Below, one piece after another: positions 41,778-51,580 of a stretch of DNA of 64,000 nucleotides; positions within the stretch are counted from its first letter, which is position 1; the number at the start of each line of letters is the position of its first letter. Source of the stretch: Candidatus Latescibacterota bacterium (lineage in GTDB: Bacteria > Latescibacterota > UBA2968 > UBA8231). Under the pieces are notes generated by a model. That model saw only the letters and a program-made list of their open reading frames with translations. It did no database searches and was not told the origin of the DNA. Position numbers and translations under genes: made by a program. The stretch is taken from the NCBI GenBank assembly GCA_964291625.2, contig OZ220089.1:2592001-2656000 (forward strand), in the 5' to 3' direction.

Positions 41778-41914
41778 TCCGGCCCATCGCCGGGGAGCGC
41801 CGCGCCGGTACGCTCCCCGCGCCTGGTGTTCCCCGTGCCGGGTTCTCGCCCGCGCCCCCCAACCACCCTATCCTTCCCTGACCCTGTCTCCGCCTGCCAA
41901 TCCCCGGAGGCCCC

Positions 41915-42367
41915 ATGCTCACAGCGTGGATCGTCGCGGGCGCGATCATGATCCTGCTGGAGTTGTTCCTGCCCGGAATGGTGCTCGGCTTTCTCGGGTC
42001 GAGCGCCCTGATCGTGGCCGCCCTCATCTGGCTGGGCTGGATCGACAGCCTGATCTCGGCCCTCACCACCTGGTTCATCCTCTCCCTCGTCCTGCTCCTG
42101 AGTCTGCGCGGCCTGTTCCTCCGCTTCGTCGGGGGCAGGTCCGAGCGCCAGTCCACCGACGAGGAGGAGGATGCCTACGGCACGGTCGTGGACGTGGTGG
42201 AGAGGATCTCACCGGACCGGGCGGGACGGATCCACTACCGGGACGCCACCTGGCAGGCGATCTGCCATGATCGCACCATCGAGGCCGGAGAGAAGGCGAT
42301 CCTCGCCTATCGCGAGAACCTCGCGTGGGTCGTCGAGCCCGCCGGGCTGGAGGAAAGCGATCCTTGA
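41915..42367 (+). CDS. NfeD family membrane protein
   Basis: N-terminal TM helices plus an OB-fold ('GRIHYRDATWQA'); immediately upstream of the SPFH genes. Confidence 0.85.
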   Translation: MLTAWIVAGAIMILLELFLPGMVLGFLGSSALIVAALIWLGWIDSLISALTTWFILSLVLLLSLRGLFLRFVGGRSERQSTDEEEDAYGTVVDVVERISPDRAGRIHYRDATWQAICHDRTIEAGEKAILAYRENLAWVVEPAGLEESDP

Positions 42368-42384
42368 AACGGGAGAGTTGAGCC

Positions 42385-43317
42385 ATGCCGCTTCTGACCT
42401 ACTTCACGATCCTGGTGCTGATCGCCCTGTTCGTGGTGCTCAAGACGTTCGTCGTCGTGCCCATGCGCGAGGCGGTCATCGTCGAGCGCCTGGGCAAGTT
42501 CCGGGCGGTCCTGCCGCCGGGGTTCCACTTCCTCATCCCCTTCTGCGACCGCATCGCCTACCGCCACGAGACCCGCGAGCAGGTGATCGACGTCCCCAGC
42601 CAGGCCTGCATCACCCGCGACAACATCCAGGTCGAGGTCGACGGTCTGGTCTACCTGCAGGTGCTCGACCCCGAGCGGGCCAGCTACGGCATCGAGGACT
42701 ACCGCCGCGCCAGCGTCAACCTGGCGCAGACGACGATGCGGGCCGAGATCGGCAAGCTGACCCTGGGCCAGTGCTTCTACGAGCGAGAGTCCCTGAACGA
42801 GACGATCGTGCAGGAGATCGACAAGGCGTCGAACCCCTGGGGCATCAAGGTGCTGCGCTACGAGCTGCGGAACATCACGCCCTCGGCCAACGTGGTGAAC
42901 ACCCTGGAGAAGCAGATGGAGGCGGAGCGCGAGAAGCGCGCCGAGATCACCCGCGCCGCCGCCGAGAAGGAGTCCACCATCAACCTCTCCGAGGGCGAGC
43001 GCCAGGAGGAGATCAACATCTCGGAGGGCGAGAAGCAGCGCCGGATCAACGTCGCCAAGGGCCGGGCGGAGGCGATCTCCATCATCGCCGAGGCCACCGC
43101 CGAGGGCACCGAGCGGATCGCCGCCGCGGTCCAGAAGGAAGGGGGGTCGGCGGCGCTGAAGATGCAGCTGGTGGAGGAGTACATCGAGATGATCAGCGAG
43201 ATCGCGGGAAAGTCCAACGTCTCCGTCGTGCCCCTGGAGCTGGCCCGGATCAAGGGCTTCTTCGAGGGGCTGGGCGAGGTCTCCGGTGGCACGCCGACCC
43301 AGAAGAAGGGAGCCTGA
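42385..43317 (+). CDS. SPFH/Band 7 (stomatin/paraslipin) protein
   Basis: 'VERLGKF', 'CITRDNIQVEVDG', 'LAQTTMR' and 'QMEAEREKRA'. Confidence 0.92.
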   Translation: MPLLTYFTILVLIALFVVLKTFVVVPMREAVIVERLGKFRAVLPPGFHFLIPFCDRIAYRHETREQVIDVPSQACITRDNIQVEVDGLVYLQVLDPERASYGIEDYRRASVNLAQTTMRAEIGKLTLGQCFYERESLNETIVQEIDKASNPWGIKVLRYELRNITPSANVVNTLEKQMEAEREKRAEITRAAAEKESTINLSEGERQEEINISEGEKQRRINVAKGRAEAISIIAEATAEGTERIAAAVQKEGGSAALKMQLVEEYIEMISEIAGKSNVSVVPLELARIKGFFEGLGEVSGGTPTQKKGA

Positions 43318-43318
43318 C

Positions 43319-44248
43319 ATGTCGACCGTCTTCGAGATCTTCAACTTCACCGTCTGGGGCGTTCTGCTCCTGGTCCTGATCGTCATGTTCCTGCGCTCGA
43401 TCCGGCTGGTGCCGACCCAGTCGGCGTACGTCGTCGAGCGGCTCGGCCAGTACTCCAGGACGCTGAATCCCGGTTTTCACGCCCTGGTGCCCTTCATCGA
43501 AAGGGTGGCCTTCATCCGCGACCTCAAGGAGGAGACCGTGGACGTGCCGCCCCAGGAGTGCTTCACCCGGGACGAGGTCCAGGTCGAGGTGGACGGCGTC
43601 CTCTACATCTCGGTCACCGACCCGGTGAAGGCCAGCTACGGGGTGACCAACTACTCCTTCGCCGCCATGCAACTGGCGCAGACGACGACCCGCTCCGTCA
43701 TCGGCACCCTCGAGCTCGACCGCACCTTCGAGGAGCGCGACCTGATCTCGGCCAAGGTCGTGGAGGTGCTGGAGAGGTCGGGGGAGACCTGGGGGATCCG
43801 CGTCCACCGCTACGAGATCAAGAACCTGTCGCCGCCGCCGACGGTGAAGGACGCCATGGAGAAGCAGGTCACCGCCGAGCGCGACCGCCGCGCCATCGTG
43901 GCCCAGTCGGAGGGCGACAAGCAGAGCCGCATCAACACCTCGGAGGGCCGGCGCCTGGAGCTGATCAACCGCTCGGAGGGCGAGATGCAGCGCACCATCA
44001 ACGAGGCCCAGGGCCAGGCCGAGGAGGTCCGGGCCATCGCCCACGCGACGGCCGAGTCGATCGAGAAGATCGCGGCCTCGATCAGCGTCGCCGGCGGCGC
44101 CCAGTCGGTGCACCTGCAGCTGGCGGAGCGCTACCTGAAGAGGCTGCGTGCTCTGGCCGACGGCAAGACGGACGTGCTCCTGCCCGTGGACCTGGCCAAC
44201 CCTCAGCAGCTGCTGGACGCCATCGAGTTGCGCGGGCCTGACGGATAG
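43319..44248 (+). CDS. Second SPFH/Band 7 (paraslipin) protein
   Basis: 'VVERLGQY', 'CFTRDEVQVEVDG', 'LAQTTTR' and 'QVTAERDRRA'. Confidence 0.92.
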   Translation: MSTVFEIFNFTVWGVLLLVLIVMFLRSIRLVPTQSAYVVERLGQYSRTLNPGFHALVPFIERVAFIRDLKEETVDVPPQECFTRDEVQVEVDGVLYISVTDPVKASYGVTNYSFAAMQLAQTTTRSVIGTLELDRTFEERDLISAKVVEVLERSGETWGIRVHRYEIKNLSPPPTVKDAMEKQVTAERDRRAIVAQSEGDKQSRINTSEGRRLELINRSEGEMQRTINEAQGQAEEVRAIAHATAESIEKIAASISVAGGAQSVHLQLAERYLKRLRALADGKTDVLLPVDLANPQQLLDAIELRGPDG

Positions 44249-44340
44249 CGCTGTCGGCCGCGGGGCCACGACTCGACACCACTCCCGCGGGCAGGGCGCC
44301 CCCGGCGGTCGGCGGGTGGGGAGCCGCCAGGGGCTGACGG

Positions 44341-47300
44341 TCACTGGTCGGAGAGTCCGACCAGCAGCCGCGAGTACTCGTCCTCCAGCGGATCGACCTC
44401 GCCCCGGAGGGCCGCCCGCGCGAAGACGATGCCCGGCCGCTCGACACGGCGGGCCCGGGCCAGCACGCCGAAACCCTCCGTCCCGGAGCCCCGCTGGCCC
44501 TCGCCGAGGGACTCGAACTCCGACAGGACGCGGAACAGGCCGCGCCGGGCGCCGACCACCCTGGCCAGCACCTCGGGCGCGGTGAGCCCCTCCCGCCAGG
44601 AGCGGCGGACCCCGAGGAGCCGGCCCTCGATGTCACGCACGAGTCCGCCCGGCCCCACCAGGGTCGTGAGCTGATGGACCGTGGCCCGGGCGCCGCTGTG
44701 ACACAGCAGGGCGGCGGCGCCAAGGTCGTCGTCGTCGTAGTCGCGGAAGCCGGCGATAGTCGCCAGGGCCTCCTCGGCGCAGGCCTGCCACTGCGGCGCG
44801 TCGTCCCCTTCCGGAAGGGCGGGCAGGTCGAGGGTGTGGCCGATGAAGGGGCCGATGGAGGCGCCTTCCCCGCGGGCGGCTTCGAACCCCAGCCGCATCA
44901 GTTCCGCGGCCACGCCCAGGGCCGCCCGCTCCCCCTCGGCGGCCAGCACCTCCCGCAGCAGCCTCGAGGCCGCCGCCCGCGTGAGGAGTCCGCCCTCGAG
45001 TTCCGGTTCCCGCCCCGCGGCCTCCGCGATCCTCTTCCGGCCCGCCGCCGAGCGGCCGAGGCAGGCGAGCCCGAAGAGGGCGTCCATGCCCGGCAGCAGG
45101 TCCTCCAGGAGATCGGGATCCCGGGCCAGGTGGGCGGCGATGGACAGCCGCTCGCGGGTCTCGCCCTGGGCCATCTCCGTGAGGGGGAGGAAGACGGCCG
45201 CCTGGTCGCCGTCGAAGTCGACGTCCAGCAGGCCGCAGGCCAGGGGGCAGAGGCGGATGGCATGGCCCGGGACCGGCAGGGGCCGGAAGGCCAGCATCGC
45301 CGTGGGGCTGACGGATGGAGCGTGATTGAGGATGATCCAGTGGGCCTCCATGGTGGCGGCGAGGGCGGCCCCGGCCTCGGAGAAGCGCCTGCTGACCGCT
45401 TCGGGATCCCCCAACTCGCGCGCCGCCAGCGGCCCGAAGAGGCTCCAGGCCATCTCCTCCGGCAGACCGATCCGGTCGGCCGCCAGGTCGCTTCCGGGGA
45501 CGATTACGGCGCGGCCGCTGAAGAGCACATTCTCATCCCGCCCCGGCTCCGGGGCCGGCGCCAGTCCGTCGTACAGGGCCGACACGGCGGCGGCCAGGTC
45601 GTCCCGGGCCGCGGCTGCCAGGGGCTCGGGAGCCTTATCCTTCAGCAGCCGCGCGAGCCGGGCGTTGGCGGCGGCGACCCCGGGATACCCGGCGGCCTCC
45701 TCCGCGTTGCAGACCTCGGACAGGGTCTCCCCCGGCAGCCACGGGTGGGGGACGCCGGCGGCCAGGGACAGCGTCGGCCCCGGGTGTGGTTCCAGCCGGA
45801 AGGCGACGCCCCCGGCGCCGGCTTCGGCGCGGATTCCGGCCTGCGCCAGCCCAGCCGCCAGGGCGGCGAAGGCGGGTGAGGGGGTGGTCGCCGGCTCGAC
45901 CGGTCCGGCGGCGGCCCTGCCGGCCAGGGAACCCGCGTCGCCGCGCCGGGTGGAGCAGGTGTTGGTCAGCTCCCGGATCACCGCGGGTGCGCCGGCCTCG
46001 GCCAAGGCCCGCACCTCCATCACCCCCAGGCGCTGGCCCCTGTCGTCCGGGTGGACGGCGGCCCTCAGCTTCGGGCGCGCGCGGTGCAGCGTGCAGCCCC
46101 AGTAGACCCATCCGGCCGTGGCCGGCCGCCGCAGGGGCGTGCCGCCGAGGGTCAGCCTGGTCATGCCGTCGGCGCGCAGGCCGCTGCCCCGAAGCAGGTC
46201 CCGCAGCTGCTCGTCCGAGGGCGCCTCGAAGGGCGGCACCACGGCGGGCTCCCCCCGCAGGAGGGCCGCGTGGCCGAGGGCGGCCTCCCGGACCAGCCCC
46301 ATGACCCAGCGGGACGGGATGCCCGAGAAGCTGAAGACCAGCTCCACGGGGGTGCCGTCCGGCAGCCGCGGCATCTCCTCGTCGGGCGCCACCCGCGACA
46401 CGACGCCCTTGACCCCGTGCCGGTTGCTGAGCTTGTCGCCGGCTTCGAGGGGGTCCGGGCAGGCGAGCTTGCGGGCGCCGGACCGGCTGACCAGCAAGGC
46501 GTCGTCGAAAGCGTCGCCGTCCCAGGAGACCAGGGCCGTGAGGAGGTTCCGGCCGCACCAGAAGTCCGGCGCCGTCGGCTCGAGGCCGGTCCGCACCAGG
46601 GCCGGCTCCCTCTCGGCGGGCGCCAGCCACTGGCGCATCATGTTGGCGCCCATGAGCACGCGGTTGCCGTCGTCGTTCTCGAGGAAGGGGACGCAGGCGC
46701 CGGAGATGCCCAGTCCCTCCGCGGGCTGCGCGTCGACGATCACCAGCCGGCGGCCTCGGATCTCCGCTCCCCGGGAAATCGTCAGGACGCGGCCGATGTT
46801 CGGTCCTTCCGGGGTCTCGAAGGGGCAGGTGCGGCCGAAGTGGGCCGGGGTGAACACCTCCTGGCGGCCGGGGACCAGGAGCCGGCGCAGGTGCGCGGCC
46901 CGGGACAGCCAGTTGGTGTCGTCGAGCCGCTCGCCGCAGGAGGCCAGGAAGGCCTGGAACCAGTCCCCCAGAGGCGCCAGGGTCCGCAGGAGGGACCCGT
47001 CGAGGGGGGTGTGCTCGGGGACCTGGCCCAGGCGGGCCTCGATGAAGGTGGAGAGCCGGTCGCCGAGACAGCCGATGCGCGCCTCGGCCAGGTCGTCGCG
47101 GTCGGCCACGGGAGGCACGACCAGCTCGACGCCGCCCGAGGGGTCGCGCTCCCCCCCGGGGATCGTCCTCGGAGGCGGCAGGCTGGGACTGGCCTCCGCC
47201 ACCCGGAAGACGCCCTCTTCGTCCGGCGCGGGCAGCCCGTCGTATTCGACCTCGAAGTCCCCCTCGACCGAGGGTCCGCCGAGGACGATCCGGCAGGCGT

Positions 47301-47427
47301 GCTCGCCGGCCCCTTCGGCGCGGTAGCTGCTCACCCCCAGCCGTGCGGCCAGCAGCTCGGGAAGGCGGCGGTGCAGGAAGTCGTCGAAGGAGGCCTTGTG
47401 CCACGGGTTGGCCGGCGTCGTTCTCAT
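44341..47427 (-). CDS. Miniature single-chain RNA polymerase-like protein (fused, truncated RpoB+RpoC; 1028 aa)
   Basis: RpoB motifs appear in order: HFGRTCPFETPEGPNIG, PFLENDDGNRVLMGANMMRQ, WDGDAFDDALLVS, GDKLSNRHGVKGVVS, GIPSR, GQRLGVMEV. RpoC motifs follow in order: clamp helices, FSGRAVIVPG, LNHAP, DVDFDGDQ, SGARA, REGL..GARRGL. Confidence 0.9.
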   Translation of the reverse strand: MRTTPANPWHKASFDDFLHRRLPELLAARLGVSSYRAEGAGEHACRIVLGGPSVEGDFEVEYDGLPAPDEEGVFRVAEASPSLPPPRTIPGGERDPSGGVELVVPPVADRDDLAEARIGCLGDRLSTFIEARLGQVPEHTPLDGSLLRTLAPLGDWFQAFLASCGERLDDTNWLSRAAHLRRLLVPGRQEVFTPAHFGRTCPFETPEGPNIGRVLTISRGAEIRGRRLVIVDAQPAEGLGISGACVPFLENDDGNRVLMGANMMRQWLAPAEREPALVRTGLEPTAPDFWCGRNLLTALVSWDGDAFDDALLVSRSGARKLACPDPLEAGDKLSNRHGVKGVVSRVAPDEEMPRLPDGTPVELVFSFSGIPSRWVMGLVREAALGHAALLRGEPAVVPPFEAPSDEQLRDLLRGSGLRADGMTRLTLGGTPLRRPATAGWVYWGCTLHRARPKLRAAVHPDDRGQRLGVMEVRALAEAGAPAVIRELTNTCSTRRGDAGSLAGRAAAGPVEPATTPSPAFAALAAGLAQAGIRAEAGAGGVAFRLEPHPGPTLSLAAGVPHPWLPGETLSEVCNAEEAAGYPGVAAANARLARLLKDKAPEPLAAAARDDLAAAVSALYDGLAPAPEPGRDENVLFSGRAVIVPGSDLAADRIGLPEEMAWSLFGPLAARELGDPEAVSRRFSEAGAALAATMEAHWIILNHAPSVSPTAMLAFRPLPVPGHAIRLCPLACGLLDVDFDGDQAAVFLPLTEMAQGETRERLSIAAHLARDPDLLEDLLPGMDALFGLACLGRSAAGRKRIAEAAGREPELEGGLLTRAAASRLLREVLAAEGERAALGVAAELMRLGFEAARGEGASIGPFIGHTLDLPALPEGDDAPQWQACAEEALATIAGFRDYDDDDLGAAALLCHSGARATVHQLTTLVGPGGLVRDIEGRLLGVRRSWREGLTAPEVLARVVGARRGLFRVLSEFESLGEGQRGSGTEGFGVLARARRVERPGIVFARAALRGEVDPLEDEYSRLLVGLSDQ

Positions 47428-47428
47428 G

Positions 47429-48034
47429 TCAGTCTTCCTCCCAGTCGATCCCCAGCTCGCGCCAGGATCGAGCGATCTGTTTGCGGGCGTGGTGGATCCG
47501 GGACTTCACCGTGCCCTCGGGTATGCCCAGCTCCAAAGCGGCCTGGCGAGTGTTCATGTTGCCGTCGTAGATCAGCCGGATGACCTTGCGCCGGTCCTCC
47601 GGCAGGCGCGTCACCAGGCCGCGCAGCAGCCGCCGGCGCTCCGCCAGGGCCAGGACCTCGTCGGGCGGAAGGGTGGAGGCGTCGATCATCCATTCCGGCA
47701 CCCGCTCCTCCCTCCCCTCCTCTCCCTCCATGGCGGGGGGAGGCTGCAGCGGCTGCTCGTGACGGCGCCGGACCGAGCGGATGTGGTTGAGGGCCAGGTT
47801 CGTGGCGATGCGCAGCAGCCAGGCGAGCAGGGGGCCCTCGCCCTTCCACTGTCCGGCGCGGTGCCACAGACGGAGGAAGACCTCCTGACCGACGTCGGCG
47901 GCGTCCTCGTCATGGCGATGGATGCGCCGCAGGTGACGCTGCACATCGGCGCGGTAGCGCTCGAAGAGCTTGGCGAAGTCCTCCTGCCGCCCCTCGATCA
48001 CCCCGCGGACCAGCTCCTCGTCGCTCTTCCCCAT
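47429..48034 (-). CDS. ECF (group 4) RNA polymerase sigma factor
   Basis: Region 2 'DAADVGQEVFLRLW..WLLRIATNLALN' and region 4 'LPEDRRKVIRL..AALELGIPEGTVKSRIHHAR'. Confidence 0.93.
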   Translation of the reverse strand: MGKSDEELVRGVIEGRQEDFAKLFERYRADVQRHLRRIHRHDEDAADVGQEVFLRLWHRAGQWKGEGPLLAWLLRIATNLALNHIRSVRRRHEQPLQPPPAMEGEEGREERVPEWMIDASTLPPDEVLALAERRRLLRGLVTRLPEDRRKVIRLIYDGNMNTRQAALELGIPEGTVKSRIHHARKQIARSWRELGIDWEED

Positions 48035-48048
48035 CCGGCCTCCACCCG

Positions 48049-48077
48049 GTTGACACCGCCGGCGCCTGCCGGGTTCA
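48049..48077 (-). promoter_or_regulatory. Putative ECF-sigma (autoregulatory) promoter
   Basis: The minus strand reads TGAACCC-N16-GTCAAC, then GGAGG, then the sigma ATG 14 nt after the -10 element. Confidence 0.6.
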
Positions 48078-49421
48078 CCGGGCCGGGGGAGCCGGTTCCG
48101 CGATGCAGTAGAGGTGGTGTCGTCCCCGCAGATAGAGCTCGCCGCCGGCCAGGGCCGCCGAGGCGCTGAAGCTGTCGTCGAGGTGGTTGACGGCCAGGAC
48201 GGCGGGGGCGTCCGCGTGGCTGACGACCACGGTGGCGCCGTTGCGGCCGGTGACGTAGACGCGGCCGGCGGCGGCGACGGGAGAGGCGAAGACCCGGTCG
48301 AGGCCCTTCAACCGCATCGGCCCCGGCCGGTCCCCCCCGGTCCGGGCGTCGACGCGGGTGAGGATGTTCTGGAAGTGGCGGACGAAGTAGAGGGCGTCGC
48401 CGTAGAGCAGGAGGGAGGGGACGTACGGCGCCCCCCGGGTGCGGCTCCAGGCGGCCCGGCGGCTGCGGCTGTCCTCGCCCTCGGAGGGTTGGAGGGGAAT
48501 CGCCAGCACCGCCTGCCGGTCGTAGCTGCTCCCCGCGAAGACGAGGCCGAAGCCGGCCACCGGCGTGGCGACCACGTTCTCCACCGAGAGCCCCGGACAC
48601 TCCCAGATCCTGCGGCCGTCGGCGAGGTCGTAGCCGCGCACTCCCCCGGAGCCGCTGACCACGACCTGGGGCCGGCCGCCGGCCTCGGTGACGATGGGGG
48701 TGGTCCAGGACGAGGCCGGTGCGCGGGGGCTCTTCCAGCGGAGGGCGCCCGTCCCCTTGTCGAAGGCGGCGAGGAAGGACTCCCCCTCGTGGTCCCAATT
48801 GACGATCAGAGCCCCGCCGGCGACCGCCGGCGAGCTGCCTTCGCCGTGGCCGTGGAGCGGCTCCAGGGGGCCGAGGTCCAACTCCCACAGCAGCTCCCCA
48901 TCGAGATCGAGGCCGTAGATCCCGTGGGAGCCGAAGGAGGCGACCAGGTGCTCGCCGTCGGTCACCGCCGAGGCGGAGGCCAGGCTCGCCGTGTAGTGGC
49001 CGCCGGCGCGGGGCAGGGCCTCGCGCACCACCCGCTGCCAGAGGACCTGTCCCGTGCGGCGGTCCAGGGCGAGGACGACGAACCGGTGGCGGTGAGTGAC
49101 CGGCCGTTCGTCGTGGCTGCCCGGCAGGCCGCTGAGCTTCGGACGCAGAGGTTCGCCGTAGGGGACGGCGGCGGTGATGAAGATCCGGTCGCCCCAGACC
49201 ACCGGCGTCGAGTGGCCGCCGCCGGGAAGCGCCGCCTTCCAGCGCAGGTTGCGGGTCTCGCTCCACTCGAGCGGTGGATCGGCGTGGGGTGCGGCGCCGG
49301 TGCCCAGGGGGCCGCGCCAGGCGGGCCAGAAGCGGTCCCCATCGGTCTCCGGCTCGCCGGAGGCCGCGGTCAGCAGGCAGCAGACCACCGCGAGGGCCGC
49401 GGATGGGCCCATGCGGACCAT
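48075..49421 (-). CDS. PQQ-like / BamB-like beta-propeller secreted protein
   Basis: Signal peptide; 'WPAWRGP', 'GHSTPVVWGDRIF', 'SWTTP' and 'FASPV'. Confidence 0.87.
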   Translation of the reverse strand: MVRMGPSAALAVVCCLLTAASGEPETDGDRFWPAWRGPLGTGAAPHADPPLEWSETRNLRWKAALPGGGHSTPVVWGDRIFITAAVPYGEPLRPKLSGLPGSHDERPVTHRHRFVVLALDRRTGQVLWQRVVREALPRAGGHYTASLASASAVTDGEHLVASFGSHGIYGLDLDGELLWELDLGPLEPLHGHGEGSSPAVAGGALIVNWDHEGESFLAAFDKGTGALRWKSPRAPASSWTTPIVTEAGGRPQVVVSGSGGVRGYDLADGRRIWECPGLSVENVVATPVAGFGLVFAGSSYDRQAVLAIPLQPSEGEDSRSRRAAWSRTRGAPYVPSLLLYGDALYFVRHFQNILTRVDARTGGDRPGPMRLKGLDRVFASPVAAAGRVYVTGRNGATVVVSHADAPAVLAVNHLDDSFSASAALAGGELYLRGRHHLYCIAEPAPPAR

Positions 49422-49423
49422 TC

Positions 49424-51520
49424 TCAGACCACGGGGGGCGGGTCCGCTCTCCGTGCGGGCTCGGGATCGGCCAGGCGCAACAGGTCCCGCCGGGCGGAGG
49501 ACTGCGCCACCCGCACCCGCAGGACCTGGCCGGGCGCGGCCTGCAGCCGCTGCCCCCGGGGGGCGGGGACGTGGCACGCCACCGGGCCCTCGGGCAGCAG
49601 GACCAGGTGGCCGGGCCCGCGCGGCTCGGCGACCACGCACTGCAGCCGCGCCTTGTCCCCAAGGCTTTCGAGCCATTTGAGCGTCCAGTAGCGGCGGCTG
49701 CAGCGGCGCACGCGCTCCGCCGTCTCCCGGGCCTCGCGCGTCTCCAGCAGGATGCGCTCCAGGTCCTCTGCCGTCAGGGGGTCGGAGCGCCGGCCCGCGA
49801 TCCACAGCAGCTGCCGCTGCATGGCCAGGTCGACGTAGCTCGACAGGGGGCCGGCGCCCGGAGCGCAGGCCGGAAGTCCGAGACCCGCGTGGGGGGCGGG
49901 GGACGTCCCGAGCCTCTCGCGCGGGGTCCCGCTCTCGTGCAGATGGGTGCGGAGGACCTCGGCCGACGTGGAGTCGGCGGCGAGGGGGACGCCGGACTCG
50001 GCGGGCGGGGCCTCGCGCACCGCGTGGATCGCGGGCGCCGCGTCGCGGCAGAGGCGGGCGATCGCTTCGGCGGCCAGCAGGCCCAGCTCCGAGTCGACGC
50101 GATCCTCAACCCCCTCCGCCGCCGGCTCCGCCCGTCCTTGACGGACCGCGATCCGGTCGGCGGGATGCAGTTGCTGCCAGGCCCCCGCCCGCCGCCGCCT
50201 CTGCCGCCGCCCCTCGGCCAGCGCCGCCAGGCGGCGCACCGGGGCGCTGCCCTCGCCGGCCGCGAGCGCCGCACGGGGCCGGGCGCGGCCCAGGGACAGC
50301 CGCACCTTCTGCGGCGCCAGCTCCCGGTCCAGGCGCACGCTCAGGATCAGGACGGGTCGGGCCTCGTCCGCCGTCAGCCGGCAGGCGTCGGTCAGATCCG
50401 GCGGCAGCATCGGGATCTCCCGCTCCAGCAGGCGCACGCTGAGTCCCCGGGCGGCGGCTTCCTGATCGATGGCGCCGCCGTCCTCCACCCACAGGGCCGG
50501 CACGGCCATGTGGATGTCGACGACGGTGTGGCCGAGCAGGCTCCGGCGGAGACGGTAGGCCCGCTGGCCGCAGCGGGTGACGCAGAGGCCCGCGCCCCAG
50601 CGTCGGCGGCCTGCCCACCCAGCGAGGACGGCCGAGGGGTCGAGGCCGCGCGCCGCTCTCTTCGCCGCCTCGGAGAATGCCACGGGCAGGCCGAGGCGGT
50701 GCAGCTCCAGGTTCTCGTCGGCGGACCAGTGACCCAGGCGGACGAGGACGTCGAAGGCGGCGTGGCTTCCGTGCAGGTTGGCAGCCTTCATCAGCCGGGC
50801 GGCCTCCGCGCTCGCCTCGCCCAGGGCGGCGGCCTCGAGCAGGTCCACCGCCGAGTCCGCCCCGACGGGACGGGGGCTGGATGGGTGCCCGTCGGCGACC
50901 CTTCGGACCCACGAGGCCAGCTCGGTCTGGCGGCCTTCCTCCCTCTCCTCGCGGGCCGAGGATGCCTCGATCCCCTCTACCGCCGCCGGGGAGCGGGGGC
51001 GCCAGCGGGCGCCGTGGCGCTCGAACCGGTGGCCGCGCCACAGGGCCCGGAGCATGCCGGCCCGGCGGCTGGCGTTCGGATCGCCGGGGTCGTGGAGCTC
51101 GACCAGATCGTCGAGCCGCCACTCGCCGCCCTCCGGGCCCCCCTCGAGAGCGACCTGCCAGAGGGCCGTGAGATCGACGGCGCCGCGGGCCTGCTCGCGC
51201 CTCCGGTCGATGCGGCGGAGGTCGGCCAGCGCCATCTCGGGGGTGTGCATCGACACGTACTCCGGGGATACGTCCACCACCTTGTCGCGGCGGAGGTGGA
51301 GCCGGCGGCCGTCGACGCCGACGACGTCGTAGCCCCTGCGGTTCTGCGGATCCCGGGCGAGGTAGCCGCACTGAAGCTGGCCGCCGCGGCGGAACTCGAG
51401 CACCGCGCCGGCGCGCTCGAGAGCGGGCTTCGCGCCGCGTTCGGCCTGCACCAGGCGCGCCACCTCCCGGCGGGAGGCGTCGTCGAGGGAGTTGGTCAGA
51501 TGTCGCGGCCAGCGGACCAT
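49424..51520 (-). CDS. RNB-domain (RNase II/R-like) protein with a degenerate active site
   Basis: 'IDQEAAARGLSV.L.EREIPMLP', 'HAGLGL....GPLSSYVDLAMQRQL', 'RRYW.LKWL' and a C-terminal S1-like region. The acidic catalytic DxxxxxDxDD motif is not visible. The start is the ATG at 51520, or the GTG at 51544. Confidence 0.72.
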   Translation of the reverse strand: MVRWPRHLTNSLDDASRREVARLVQAERGAKPALERAGAVLEFRRGGQLQCGYLARDPQNRRGYDVVGVDGRRLHLRRDKVVDVSPEYVSMHTPEMALADLRRIDRRREQARGAVDLTALWQVALEGGPEGGEWRLDDLVELHDPGDPNASRRAGMLRALWRGHRFERHGARWRPRSPAAVEGIEASSAREEREEGRQTELASWVRRVADGHPSSPRPVGADSAVDLLEAAALGEASAEAARLMKAANLHGSHAAFDVLVRLGHWSADENLELHRLGLPVAFSEAAKRAARGLDPSAVLAGWAGRRRWGAGLCVTRCGQRAYRLRRSLLGHTVVDIHMAVPALWVEDGGAIDQEAAARGLSVRLLEREIPMLPPDLTDACRLTADEARPVLILSVRLDRELAPQKVRLSLGRARPRAALAAGEGSAPVRRLAALAEGRRQRRRRAGAWQQLHPADRIAVRQGRAEPAAEGVEDRVDSELGLLAAEAIARLCRDAAPAIHAVREAPPAESGVPLAADSTSAEVLRTHLHESGTPRERLGTSPAPHAGLGLPACAPGAGPLSSYVDLAMQRQLLWIAGRRSDPLTAEDLERILLETREARETAERVRRCSRRYWTLKWLESLGDKARLQCVVAEPRGPGHLVLLPEGPVACHVPAPRGQRLQAAPGQVLRVRVAQSSARRDLLRLADPEPARRADPPPVV

Positions 51521-51528
51521 GGTCCCTG

Positions 51529-51580
51529 AGGGTATCCTCTCCACTTCGACAGTGTCAACCGCAATCCGAGGGCCTATAAT
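51529..51580. promoter_or_regulatory. Overlapping divergent sigma70-like promoters
   Basis: The plus strand has GTGTCA-N17-TATAAT (51552-51580) before the 51595 gene. The minus strand has TTGACA-N18-TACCCT (51558-51529), 8 nt before the RNB ATG. Confidence 0.45.

Follow-up and report, generated by a model that had tools for sequence, protein, structure and literature searches.

Which parts of a cellular RNA polymerase (RNAP) have to be kept for a sigma factor to act on it? The question is raised by a 64,000-nt stretch of the genome of a Candidatus Latescibacterota bacterium (contig OZ220089.1, positions 2,592,001 to 2,656,000; hereafter the window, in whose numbering positions are given). Here, a gene for a fused beta–beta' mini-polymerase of 1028 aa (P0001) lies directly downstream of a gene for a sigma factor of the extracytoplasmic function (ECF) type (P0002). 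Alignments and structure models identify aa 581–622 of P0001 as the beta' clamp coiled-coil, kept in a drastically reduced single-chain polymerase. PMC6648896 describes a conserved polar surface by which region 2 of an ECF sigma (shown for sigma E) is bound to the clamp helices, a hydrophobic one by which region 4 is bound to the flap tip helix, and a linker that threads past the lid and rudder with no residue conservation across ECFs. The mini-polymerase keeps only the first of these docks; the canonical dock of region 4 on the flap tip helix is absent.

The two halves of P0001 are readily assigned. The N-terminal half is beta (Pfam Rpb2_3 at aa 168–222 and Rpb2_6 at aa 327–443, E 8e-26) and the C-terminal half is beta' (Rpb1_2 at aa 695–759, E 7e-16), and among PDB sequences P0001 comes closest to chains of beta (E 6e-41) and of beta' (E 2e-26). 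A family profile (A1), made of P0001, three proteins from a protein search and 63 of 150 listed representatives (67 members in all), aligns by hhalign to the genome's own beta (E 2.5e-53) and own beta' (P0272, E 2.1e-33). The AlphaFold2 (AF2) model has a pLDDT of 92.9 and a pTM of 0.91, and the Foldseek and VIA matches of the P0001 models are RNAP large subunits only. Scores against the NCBIfam models are far below their cut-offs, at 154.7 versus 801 bits for rpoB (TIGR02013) and 99.1 versus 963.5 bits for rpoC (TIGR02386), and P0001 is thus not a member of either equivalog. Ordinary rpoB and rpoC genes are found on the other contig (C2) of the same genome. Collectively, the Pfam halves, the low equivalog scores and the separate rpoB and rpoC indicate that P0001 is an extra, fused and shrunken beta–beta' polymerase.

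The hallmarks of two-barrel RNAPs are present in P0001, namely the beta barrel, the Mg site with three aspartates, the clamp coiled-coil (between the lid and the position of the rudder) and the bridge helix; the C-terminus of beta and the start of beta' are also retained. D737, D739, G740 and D741 of the catalytic motif are kept in at least 90% of the 67 family members. The beta-side barrel motif GDKxxxRHGxKG is there as well, with G330, R336 and G338 invariant and D331, K332, H337, K340 and G341 kept in at least 90%. For the bridge helix, P0001 938–974 aligns to the corresponding region of own beta', and the model has a helix at 950–977. Given this conservation of the catalytic DFDGD and of the GDK...RHG.KG residues, the mini-polymerase looks, by its sequence, like a working enzyme.

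The deletions are extensive. FED (at 812) and GDK (at 1063) are 248 residues apart in E. coli beta, versus 20 residues between FDD and GDK in P0001, and hhalign leaves a block of ∼240 residues of own beta, corresponding to the flap, unmatched between P0001 324 and 325. The loss of the flap had been claimed in an earlier note made from the letters of this DNA (the original prediction), and it holds. The family hidden Markov model (HMM) covers residues 448–580, 651–707, 793–821, 1054–1147 and 1177–1341 of E. coli beta, and 266–516, 590–642 and 704–795 of E. coli beta' (together with a non-significant 1317–1354). Nothing in it corresponds to the lobes, the flap, the greater part of beta' 1–265, the rudder or beta' 796–1316; by the domain limits of E. 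coli beta', the last stretch comprises the trigger loop, its insertion and the jaw. The short connector at the place of the rudder is a low-confidence loop in a separate model of aa 541–800. A CxxC in the segment aligned to P0001 520–581 occurs in none of the 67 family members. The earlier claim that the zinc domain is lost, together with most of the clamp, is supported. On this sequence evidence, P0001 is a mini-polymerase without beta lobes, flap, zinc domain, rudder, trigger loop and jaw. Past the bridge helix (44341-44600 on the minus strand, aa 940–1028), the chain runs almost directly into a weak match to the extreme beta' C-terminal region, where HMM positions 967–1004 fall on E. coli 1317–1354 with an independent E-value of 0.03.

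The retained hairpin is recognized by alignment, by fold and by family conservation. In the hhalign of profile A1 with own beta' (prob 99.9, E 2.1e-33, 395 columns), P0001 576–623 pairs gaplessly with residues 259–306. With a second profile (A3, from 30 of 59 available fragments) and E. coli K-12 beta', P0001 579 falls on residue 267 (prob 99.7, E 3e-26) and the alignment continues without a gap to residue 310, so that residue n of the P0001 helices corresponds to E. coli n−312. Over aa 581–621 and E. coli beta' 269–309, 16 of 41 residues are identical without a gap, in agreement with the gapless match to the clamp helices that had been proposed. A profile of the hairpin alone (46 columns), searched against 46,447 six-frame open reading frames (ORFs) of the genome, ranks its own segment first (E 5.8e-14) and the canonical beta' clamp helices second, in the expected register (E 0.044; next match 0.25). 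The hairpin is helical both in the AF2 model of the whole protein and in the separate aa 541–800 model (pLDDT 84.1). The VIA search with the whole model listed the beta half only (model residues 1–540, Z ∼30); the beta' half was modelled separately. From about beta' residue 13–25 onwards, 244–254 of the 260 residues of the fragment model align to beta' chains (Z 20.4–21.1, 31–34% identity), one of which (5zx3_D) is the beta' chain of a holoenzyme with the ECF sigma H. With a root-mean-square deviation of ∼10 Å, this supports the order and topology of the elements and not a tight superposition.

Conservation within the hairpin is uneven. Among the 67 members, A587 is found in 52, N588 in 50, R590 in 46 (Lys in 6 more), L591 in 53, R593 in 42 (Lys in 6 more), P600 in 63, L603 in 61, A607 in 48 and L611 in 57. 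N588, R590 and R593 correspond to N276, R278 and R281 of E. coli beta'. The original prediction had placed the clamp helices at 45565-45687; on the minus strand, this segment encodes aa 581–621 of the 1028-aa ORF, its quoted letters are confirmed, and A587, A605 and A607 do stand at the positions of E. coli R275, R293 and E295. Alignment and fold identify the segment as the clamp coiled-coil, with conservation in the 67 homologues, contrary to the outcome on which the prediction was to be abandoned. The homology and fold of the hairpin, like the deletions around it, can be regarded as established by this analysis.

The sigma factor is equally clear-cut. P0002 scores 92.9 bits against TIGR02937 (cut-off 42.9), matches E. 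coli sigma E in hhalign (prob 99.6, E 3.8e-24) and belongs with the ECF (group 4) sigmas, since regions 2 and 4 are the sole sigma regions found by Pfam, regions 1.1 and 3 being absent. Its TGA stop codon lies one base before the polymerase ATG, and translation of the two genes is probably coupled. Region 2.2 reads DAADVGQE at aa 44–51, in accord with the DAAD noticed earlier. Between regions 2 and 4, the partner sigmas share a linker motif in which P113 is invariant and W115, D118 and P124 are kept in at least 90% of 38 sequences. They also have in common an acidic run before this motif and a C-terminal W...WEE tail (∼47429-47470). The linker motif, the acidic run and the tail could be contacts specific to the mini-polymerase.

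Linkage of the two genes is strict, and the sigma is a dedicated neighbour of the mini-polymerase. A sigma gene lies upstream on the same strand at 62 of 64 non-duplicate loci from three phyla. In 54 of the 64, a close relative of P0002 is found within the first flank, and a longer flank confirmed it in eight of the other ten; the last two loci end too near the polymerase gene to tell whether a sigma is present. At the eight loci where the longer flank was needed, one other gene stands between sigma and polymerase. At L181 (L181:1333-3126, minus strand), this is an ABC transporter-like ORF of 597 aa, and at L188 (L188:606-3011, minus strand) a peptidase-like ORF of 801 aa, both named by eye. 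Such intervening genes may be cargo expressed from the promoter of the module. In each of four genomes with the polymerase, exactly one sigma matches P0002 at E ≤1e-30, and it adjoins the polymerase. In all five genomes lacking the polymerase, there is no P0002 ortholog, and only ordinary ECFs with 27–37% identity over the full length are found, the exception being one congener with a 58-codon sigma relic. This congener (L202, G167:C1:3853000-3863000) carries a clean 3.56-kb deletion corresponding to 44244-47799, by which the whole polymerase and most of the sigma are gone; 164 nt of the sigma gene are left, and the collinear flanks are 82–92% identical. This clean deletion implies that the module of sigma and polymerase is dispensable. 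A cognate anti-sigma gene beside an ECF sigma is common but not universal; no anti-sigma family was found among the 49 flanking ORFs of four loci, and no neighbours other than the pair itself are conserved in these four.

The sigma gene is preceded by a conserved promoter of ECF type. For this survey, ∼100 nt or more of upstream sequence was available at 48 sigma genes; loci whose sequence is cut off at the sigma gene (13) were excluded. The pattern GAAC-N16-G[TC]GTC occurs with invariant spacing in 47 of these 48 upstream regions, again from three phyla. The consensus is TGAAC[CT]...CGGTGTC, and it ends ∼20–45 nt before the start codon in most cases and ∼100–135 nt before it in five. The sole exception (L097) has TGAACC and CCGGTCC at about the same place. 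In the window, the upstream PQQ-repeat gene ends on the TGA of the −35 element, which serves as its stop codon. The −10 element of sigma L is described as T−12 G−11 N C/A−9, with a preference for C−14 G−13 upstream (PMC6372665); CGGTGTC resembles it, and the whole resembles known ECF promoters. A single copy of the strict 26-nt pattern is present in the 5.9-Mb genome, and looser patterns give 2, 4 and 49 matches. Five other genomes yield 0–4 matches, versus 0–4 for a reversed control, sigma promoters aside; a duplicated match in G010 was rejected as a regulon candidate, as it falls within a coding region of the opposite strand. From these pattern searches, the only recognizable target of the sigma would be its own operon. 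One DNA contig (from run X3) carries a 14-nt tandem duplication in the promoter at 48067/48068, which doubles the −35 TGAACC and leaves one copy at the usual distance from CGGTGTC.

The module is common and patchily spread over at least three bacterial phyla. Searches with P0001 recover the polymerase from 65 of 168 genomes in the phylum of the window (19 of the 52 of high quality), from 30 of 151 sampled in the phylum to which the Poribacteria record L008 belongs and from 3 of 401 in that of the Caldilineaceae record L010; further members from the protein search were labelled Hydrogenedentes and Armatimonadetes by their submitters. Records of phages (50,697) and plasmids (72,556) contain no match covering at least 80% of P0001. 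Some genomes of the window's phylum have two matches to P0001 (G071, G080, G085, G086, G091, G092, G009 and G060). Those in G071 are at two separate places and may include a second copy of the polymerase, and the adjoining matches in one long frame in G009, G060 and G085 are probably one gene in two pieces. A supposed second fused family (L020, L051, L056 and L084, 24–25% identity) was discarded, as these loci carry ordinary rpoB and rpoC genes side by side; canonical rpoBC accounts for 76 of the 80 loci in that pattern-based search, owing to shared patterns. Sequence nearly identical to 44000-48400 is present in runs labelled as sponge metagenomes from several studies. They include two metatranscriptomic libraries, X2 (share 0.43, contigs covering 27 of 30 bins) and X22 (share 0.11, 11 of 30 bins), and one X2 contig of 1,070 nt spans 47123-48185, from 108 nt upstream of the promoter across the complete sigma gene and over the junction. 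These contigs were rejected as evidence of transcription, since they define neither a start nor a strand and the libraries may contain DNA.

Table 1. Position and basis of the elements of the sigma/mini-polymerase module and of the flanking genes in the window
Feature	Position	Strand	Basis
Fused beta(N)–beta'(C) mini RNA polymerase gene, P0001, 1028 aa	44341..47427	(-)	Pfam, hhalign, AF2 model
Clamp coiled-coil, aa 581–622: helix 581–596, turn A599-P600, helix 601–622	45562..45687	(-)	Alignments, models, family conservation
Deleted-flap site: FDD (aa 307–309), 20-residue connector (aa 310–329), GDK (aa 330–332)	46432..46509	(-)	Comparison with E. coli and own beta
Ten-residue connector (aa 623–632) replacing the rudder and the GKQGRFRQNLL segment	45532..45561	(-)	25 beta' residues unmatched (hhalign)
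Catalytic DFDGD (aa 737–741), beta' double-psi beta-barrel	45205..45219	(-)	Aligned to NADFDGD of own and E. coli beta'
ECF sigma gene, P0002, 201 aa	47429..48034	(-)	Sigma70_r2 E 2e-14, Sigma70_r4_2 E 9e-14
Sigma region 2.2 motif DAADVGQE, aa 44–51	47882..47905	(-)	D47, Q50, E51 invariant in 38 partner sigmas
Linker motif VPxWMIDxxxLxPD between regions 2 and 4, aa 112–125	47660..47701	(-)	38 partner sigmas
Promoter TGAACC-N13-CGGTGTC upstream of the sigma gene	48052..48077	(-)	Conserved in 47/48 sigma upstream regions
Downstream, convergent flank: NfeD-like gene and two SPFH/band-7 genes	41882-44245	(+)	Unrelated to the module
Upstream flank: PQQ-repeat (BamB-like) gene; RNB-domain ribonuclease	48075-49805; 49424-51544	(-)	Unrelated to the module

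Why, then, has the clamp hairpin survived? The most likely reason is that it remains the docking site of region 2. Both sides keep exposed polar residues, N588, R590 and R593 on the polymerase and D47, Q50 and E51 on the sigma, and docking of region 2 of the upstream ECF sigma on aa 581–622 has, in our estimate, a slightly better than even chance of being correct. The original prediction saw in the selective retention of this dock a sign of a real partnership. The retention fits such a partnership and does not amount to proof of it; clamp helices have other roles in canonical polymerases. Binding of the sigma by the hairpin, and use of the sigma by the mini-polymerase either alone or beside the host core, are what we infer. 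The proposed mechanism would start with region 2 of the upstream sigma docking on the retained hairpin, and the two genes would form a self-activating module driven from the conserved ECF-type promoter. Either the host core would read this promoter, or the mini-polymerase would position region 4 anew; both in sequence would make a self-amplifying circuit.

The interface modelling suggested earlier took the form of a complex prediction. For the sigma together with P0001 aa 232–1028, it reaches a median ipSAE of 0.42 (runs 0.30, 0.47 and 0.42), versus 0.00 for the best of three controls, with a partner pLDDT of at least 63 and a contact agreement of at least 34%. Of 157 solved complexes, 116 reach the mark applied, as do 2 of 215 mismatches; a pass at ≤0.60 is found for 18 of the 157 solved complexes and for both passing mismatches. 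The prediction thus lends weak support to the pairing of sigma and mini-polymerase, and the pass may reflect a likeness to solved complexes of sigma and core.

Several observations weigh against docking of the sigma on the hairpin and against a module served by the mini-polymerase. First, the complex prediction returned no interface and does not itself place the sigma on aa 581–622. Second, a co-variation analysis by mutual information with average product correction (56 of 61 pairs) places 8 hairpin pairs in the top 200 versus 9.8 expected, the best pair between hairpin and region 2 being sigma 46 with polymerase 606; no enrichment of the hairpin emerges from the paired alignment that had been proposed as a check, and the effective number of sequences (∼20) is too small to weigh either way. 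Third, the equivalents of R275 and E295 are not conserved in the family, and the equivalent of A302 is Ala in 25 of the 67 members (Arg in 16). Fourth, since the strict promoter motif occurs once in the genome, no target beyond the module itself is known. Finally, the sigma keeps an ordinary region 4, and the −35 element is strongly conserved at a fixed spacing. Deletion of the flap reportedly abolishes −35-dependent initiation (Kuznedelov et al. 2002). With the flap absent and the −35 conserved, either a new dock of region 4 is needed or the host core reads the promoter. The conserved −35 argues that something must still position region 4. It is tempting to propose that the pair is a self-contained sigma-dependent system, in which region 2 sits on the clamp helices and region 4 is positioned, without a flap and via a new dock, for a −35/−10 promoter; the system would be self-activating, patchily spread and the smallest known RNAP of cellular type using a sigma. 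In this complete form, the proposal is tentative and appreciably short of an even chance.

The best-surviving alternative holds that the sigma is an ordinary ECF using the host core only and serving just to turn on the operon of the mini-polymerase, that the coiled-coil is kept for clamp architecture or for a contact with DNA or of NusG type, and that the mini-polymerase initiates without sigma. The promoter has the canonical ECF architecture, with a −35 TGAAC, an invariant spacing and a −10 like that described for sigma L (PMC6372665), and both region 2.2 (AAEDLVQE in most partners) and region 4 of the sigma are intact. The flap-tip contacts weigh neither for nor against this: when the seven contact residues reported for sigma E (PMC6648896) are mapped by hhalign, hydrophobic family residues stand at three of them (L137, V141 and I187), and extension by hand puts W191 at a fourth, R138 and D157 being not hydrophobic and one residue remaining unplaced. 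The mini-polymerase, for its part, lacks the flap and has lost the equivalents of R275 and E295. E. coli substitutions R275Q, E295K and A302D each impair holoenzyme formation (PMC8321222), and the departure from the canonical interface at 275 and 295, and often at 302, could matter for partner selectivity. Four facts are nonetheless left unexplained or run counter to a host-only role. The surface formed by N588, R590 and R593 is kept though nearly all of the clamp is deleted; this sigma subfamily never occurs without the polymerase, as seen in the four genomes with and the five without it; no anti-sigma gene accompanies it in the four scanned neighbourhoods; and the complex prediction passed its mark, if weakly (0.42 versus 0.00). 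A sigma working with the host core only is therefore considered unlikely, although it is the alternative to be taken most seriously.

A second alternative comes from the original prediction, which proposed that the replacement of R275, R293 and E295 by Ala and of DAED by DAAD co-evolved to insulate the pair from the sigmas and core of the host. The pair in the window does combine A587, A605 and A607 with DAAD, and host sigmas could bind less well where R275 and E295 are lost, given the E. coli mutants (PMC8321222). The comparison of sigma/polymerase pairs (61 assembled, 3 dropped for gaps, 58 used) gives another picture. Sigma position 46, the second A of DAAD, is E in 36, D in 17, A in 4 and N in 1, so that 53 of the 58 sigmas have Glu or Asp there, and all four Ala belong to the genus of the window. 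Polymerase position 587 (E. coli R275) is A in 28, V in 27, S in 2 and T in 1, and position 607 (E. coli E295) is A in 31, T in 25, G in 1 and S in 1, in all clades; A or V at 587 (55/58) and A or T at 607 (56/58) are thus found everywhere. Position 605 (E. coli R293) is variable, and Ala there is confined to the same genus, in which DAAD and A605 may have been co-inherited. Because the polymerase residues remain unchanged when the sigma residue changes, co-variation of matching charges fails. Read from these alignments, A/V at 587 and A/T at 607 are old traits of the family and DAAD is a recent variant of one genus. Moreover, the Glu of DAED is aligned just ahead of the invariant Asp, outside the invariant D47, Q50 and E51, and it is not a fixed feature of ECFs in this genome: the 13 ECF-like ORFs have E in 8, A in 2, H in 1, Q in 1 and R in 1 at this position (4 of 12 ordinary ECFs without Glu), and these mixed residues make a non-Glu there ordinary. 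Insulation through co-evolved charges, contradicted at the level of the family by the residue counts, is improbable. A chance origin of the likeness to the clamp helices, through an Ala/Leu-rich helical segment in a GC-rich genome, is more improbable still and close to negligible, for even though P0001 is very Ala-rich here and the hairpin-only profile finds canonical beta' with only a modest E-value (0.044), the register is identical in three independent alignments, the segment keeps its place with respect to the beta' strands on either side and to the FSGRAV motif, 67 members with lower Ala content share the helix-AP-helix pattern, and 244–254 of 260 residues of the fragment model align to beta'.

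If the sigma drives this enzyme of 1028 residues, natural deletion tells apart what sigma-dependent promoter recognition requires of an RNAP, which would include the clamp helices, and what it can do without, which would include the flap, zinc domain, rudder, lobes and trigger loop. The limits of core reduction and the positioning of region 4 would become directly testable, and a compact two-gene orthogonal expression system would follow. If the sigma uses the host core only, the family would still be an undescribed accessory polymerase under ECF control.

Comparison with known systems helps to place the module. With canonical beta and beta', including those of its own genome, P0001 shares both double-psi barrels, GDKxxxRHGxKG, the Mg site of NADFDGD type, the bridge helix, the coiled-coil and the clamp part at the C-terminus of beta, with ∼28–33% identity over aligned columns. 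The canonical enzyme has ∼2,640 aa in two chains (own beta 1278, beta' 1363), whereas P0001 is one chain and is without lobes, flap, zinc domain, rudder, trigger loop, jaw and several connectors. Full-length beta–beta' fusions (NCBIfam NF011417 and NF007172) have the same order of beta then beta' in one polypeptide, but their models span 2,839–2,890 positions with all domains kept, and P0001 scores 148.7 and 136.4 bits against them (cut-offs 4632 and 5372). As for ECF holoenzymes, the shared features are a sigma with regions 2 and 4 only, the expected seat of region 2 on the clamp helices and a promoter of ECF type (in the accounts of PMC6648896 and PMC6372665); the differences are the lack of flap tip helix and rudder in the mini-polymerase and the absence of a visible anti-sigma gene. 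The linker motif is conserved among partner sigmas, whereas linkers of ECFs in general are described as not conserved (PMC6648896), a contrast that is less surprising within a single subgroup.

The literature searched holds no published description of this mini-polymerase family; Iyer and Aravind 2012, which was outside its scope, may bear on novelty. A search by terms in the main text and one supplementary file of the ECF re-classification paper found no mention of an RNA polymerase neighbour. The closest likenesses are found among other reduced polymerases. Orf6 of yeast linear plasmids is an Rpb2::Rpb1 fusion of 982 aa, and NCgl1702 of C. glutamicum is a beta::beta' fusion of 2169 aa (PMC2919709). 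Both are fused and reduced, with the same order of subunits as P0001, and Orf6 is also of similar size; neither is reported with a sigma. Unlike Orf6, P0001 is bacterial and linked to a sigma. The non-canonical multisubunit polymerases of the jumbo phages phiKZ and AR9 are likewise described as reduced, beta/beta'-like and independent of the host polymerase, but they consist of several polypeptides and are phage-borne. Finally, YonO of prophage SPbeta is described as a single-chain two-barrel RNAP of ∼100 kDa with no detectable trigger loop, which shares few catalytic residues with multisubunit polymerases and for which a need for factors is not known in the account given (PMC5467207). P0001 is similarly single-chain and two-barrel and lacks a trigger loop. 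Given the clear Pfam and PDB matches to beta and beta', its membership among YonO-like polymerases is unlikely; set against the description of YonO, P0001 is plainly a cut-down beta/beta' that is linked to a sigma.

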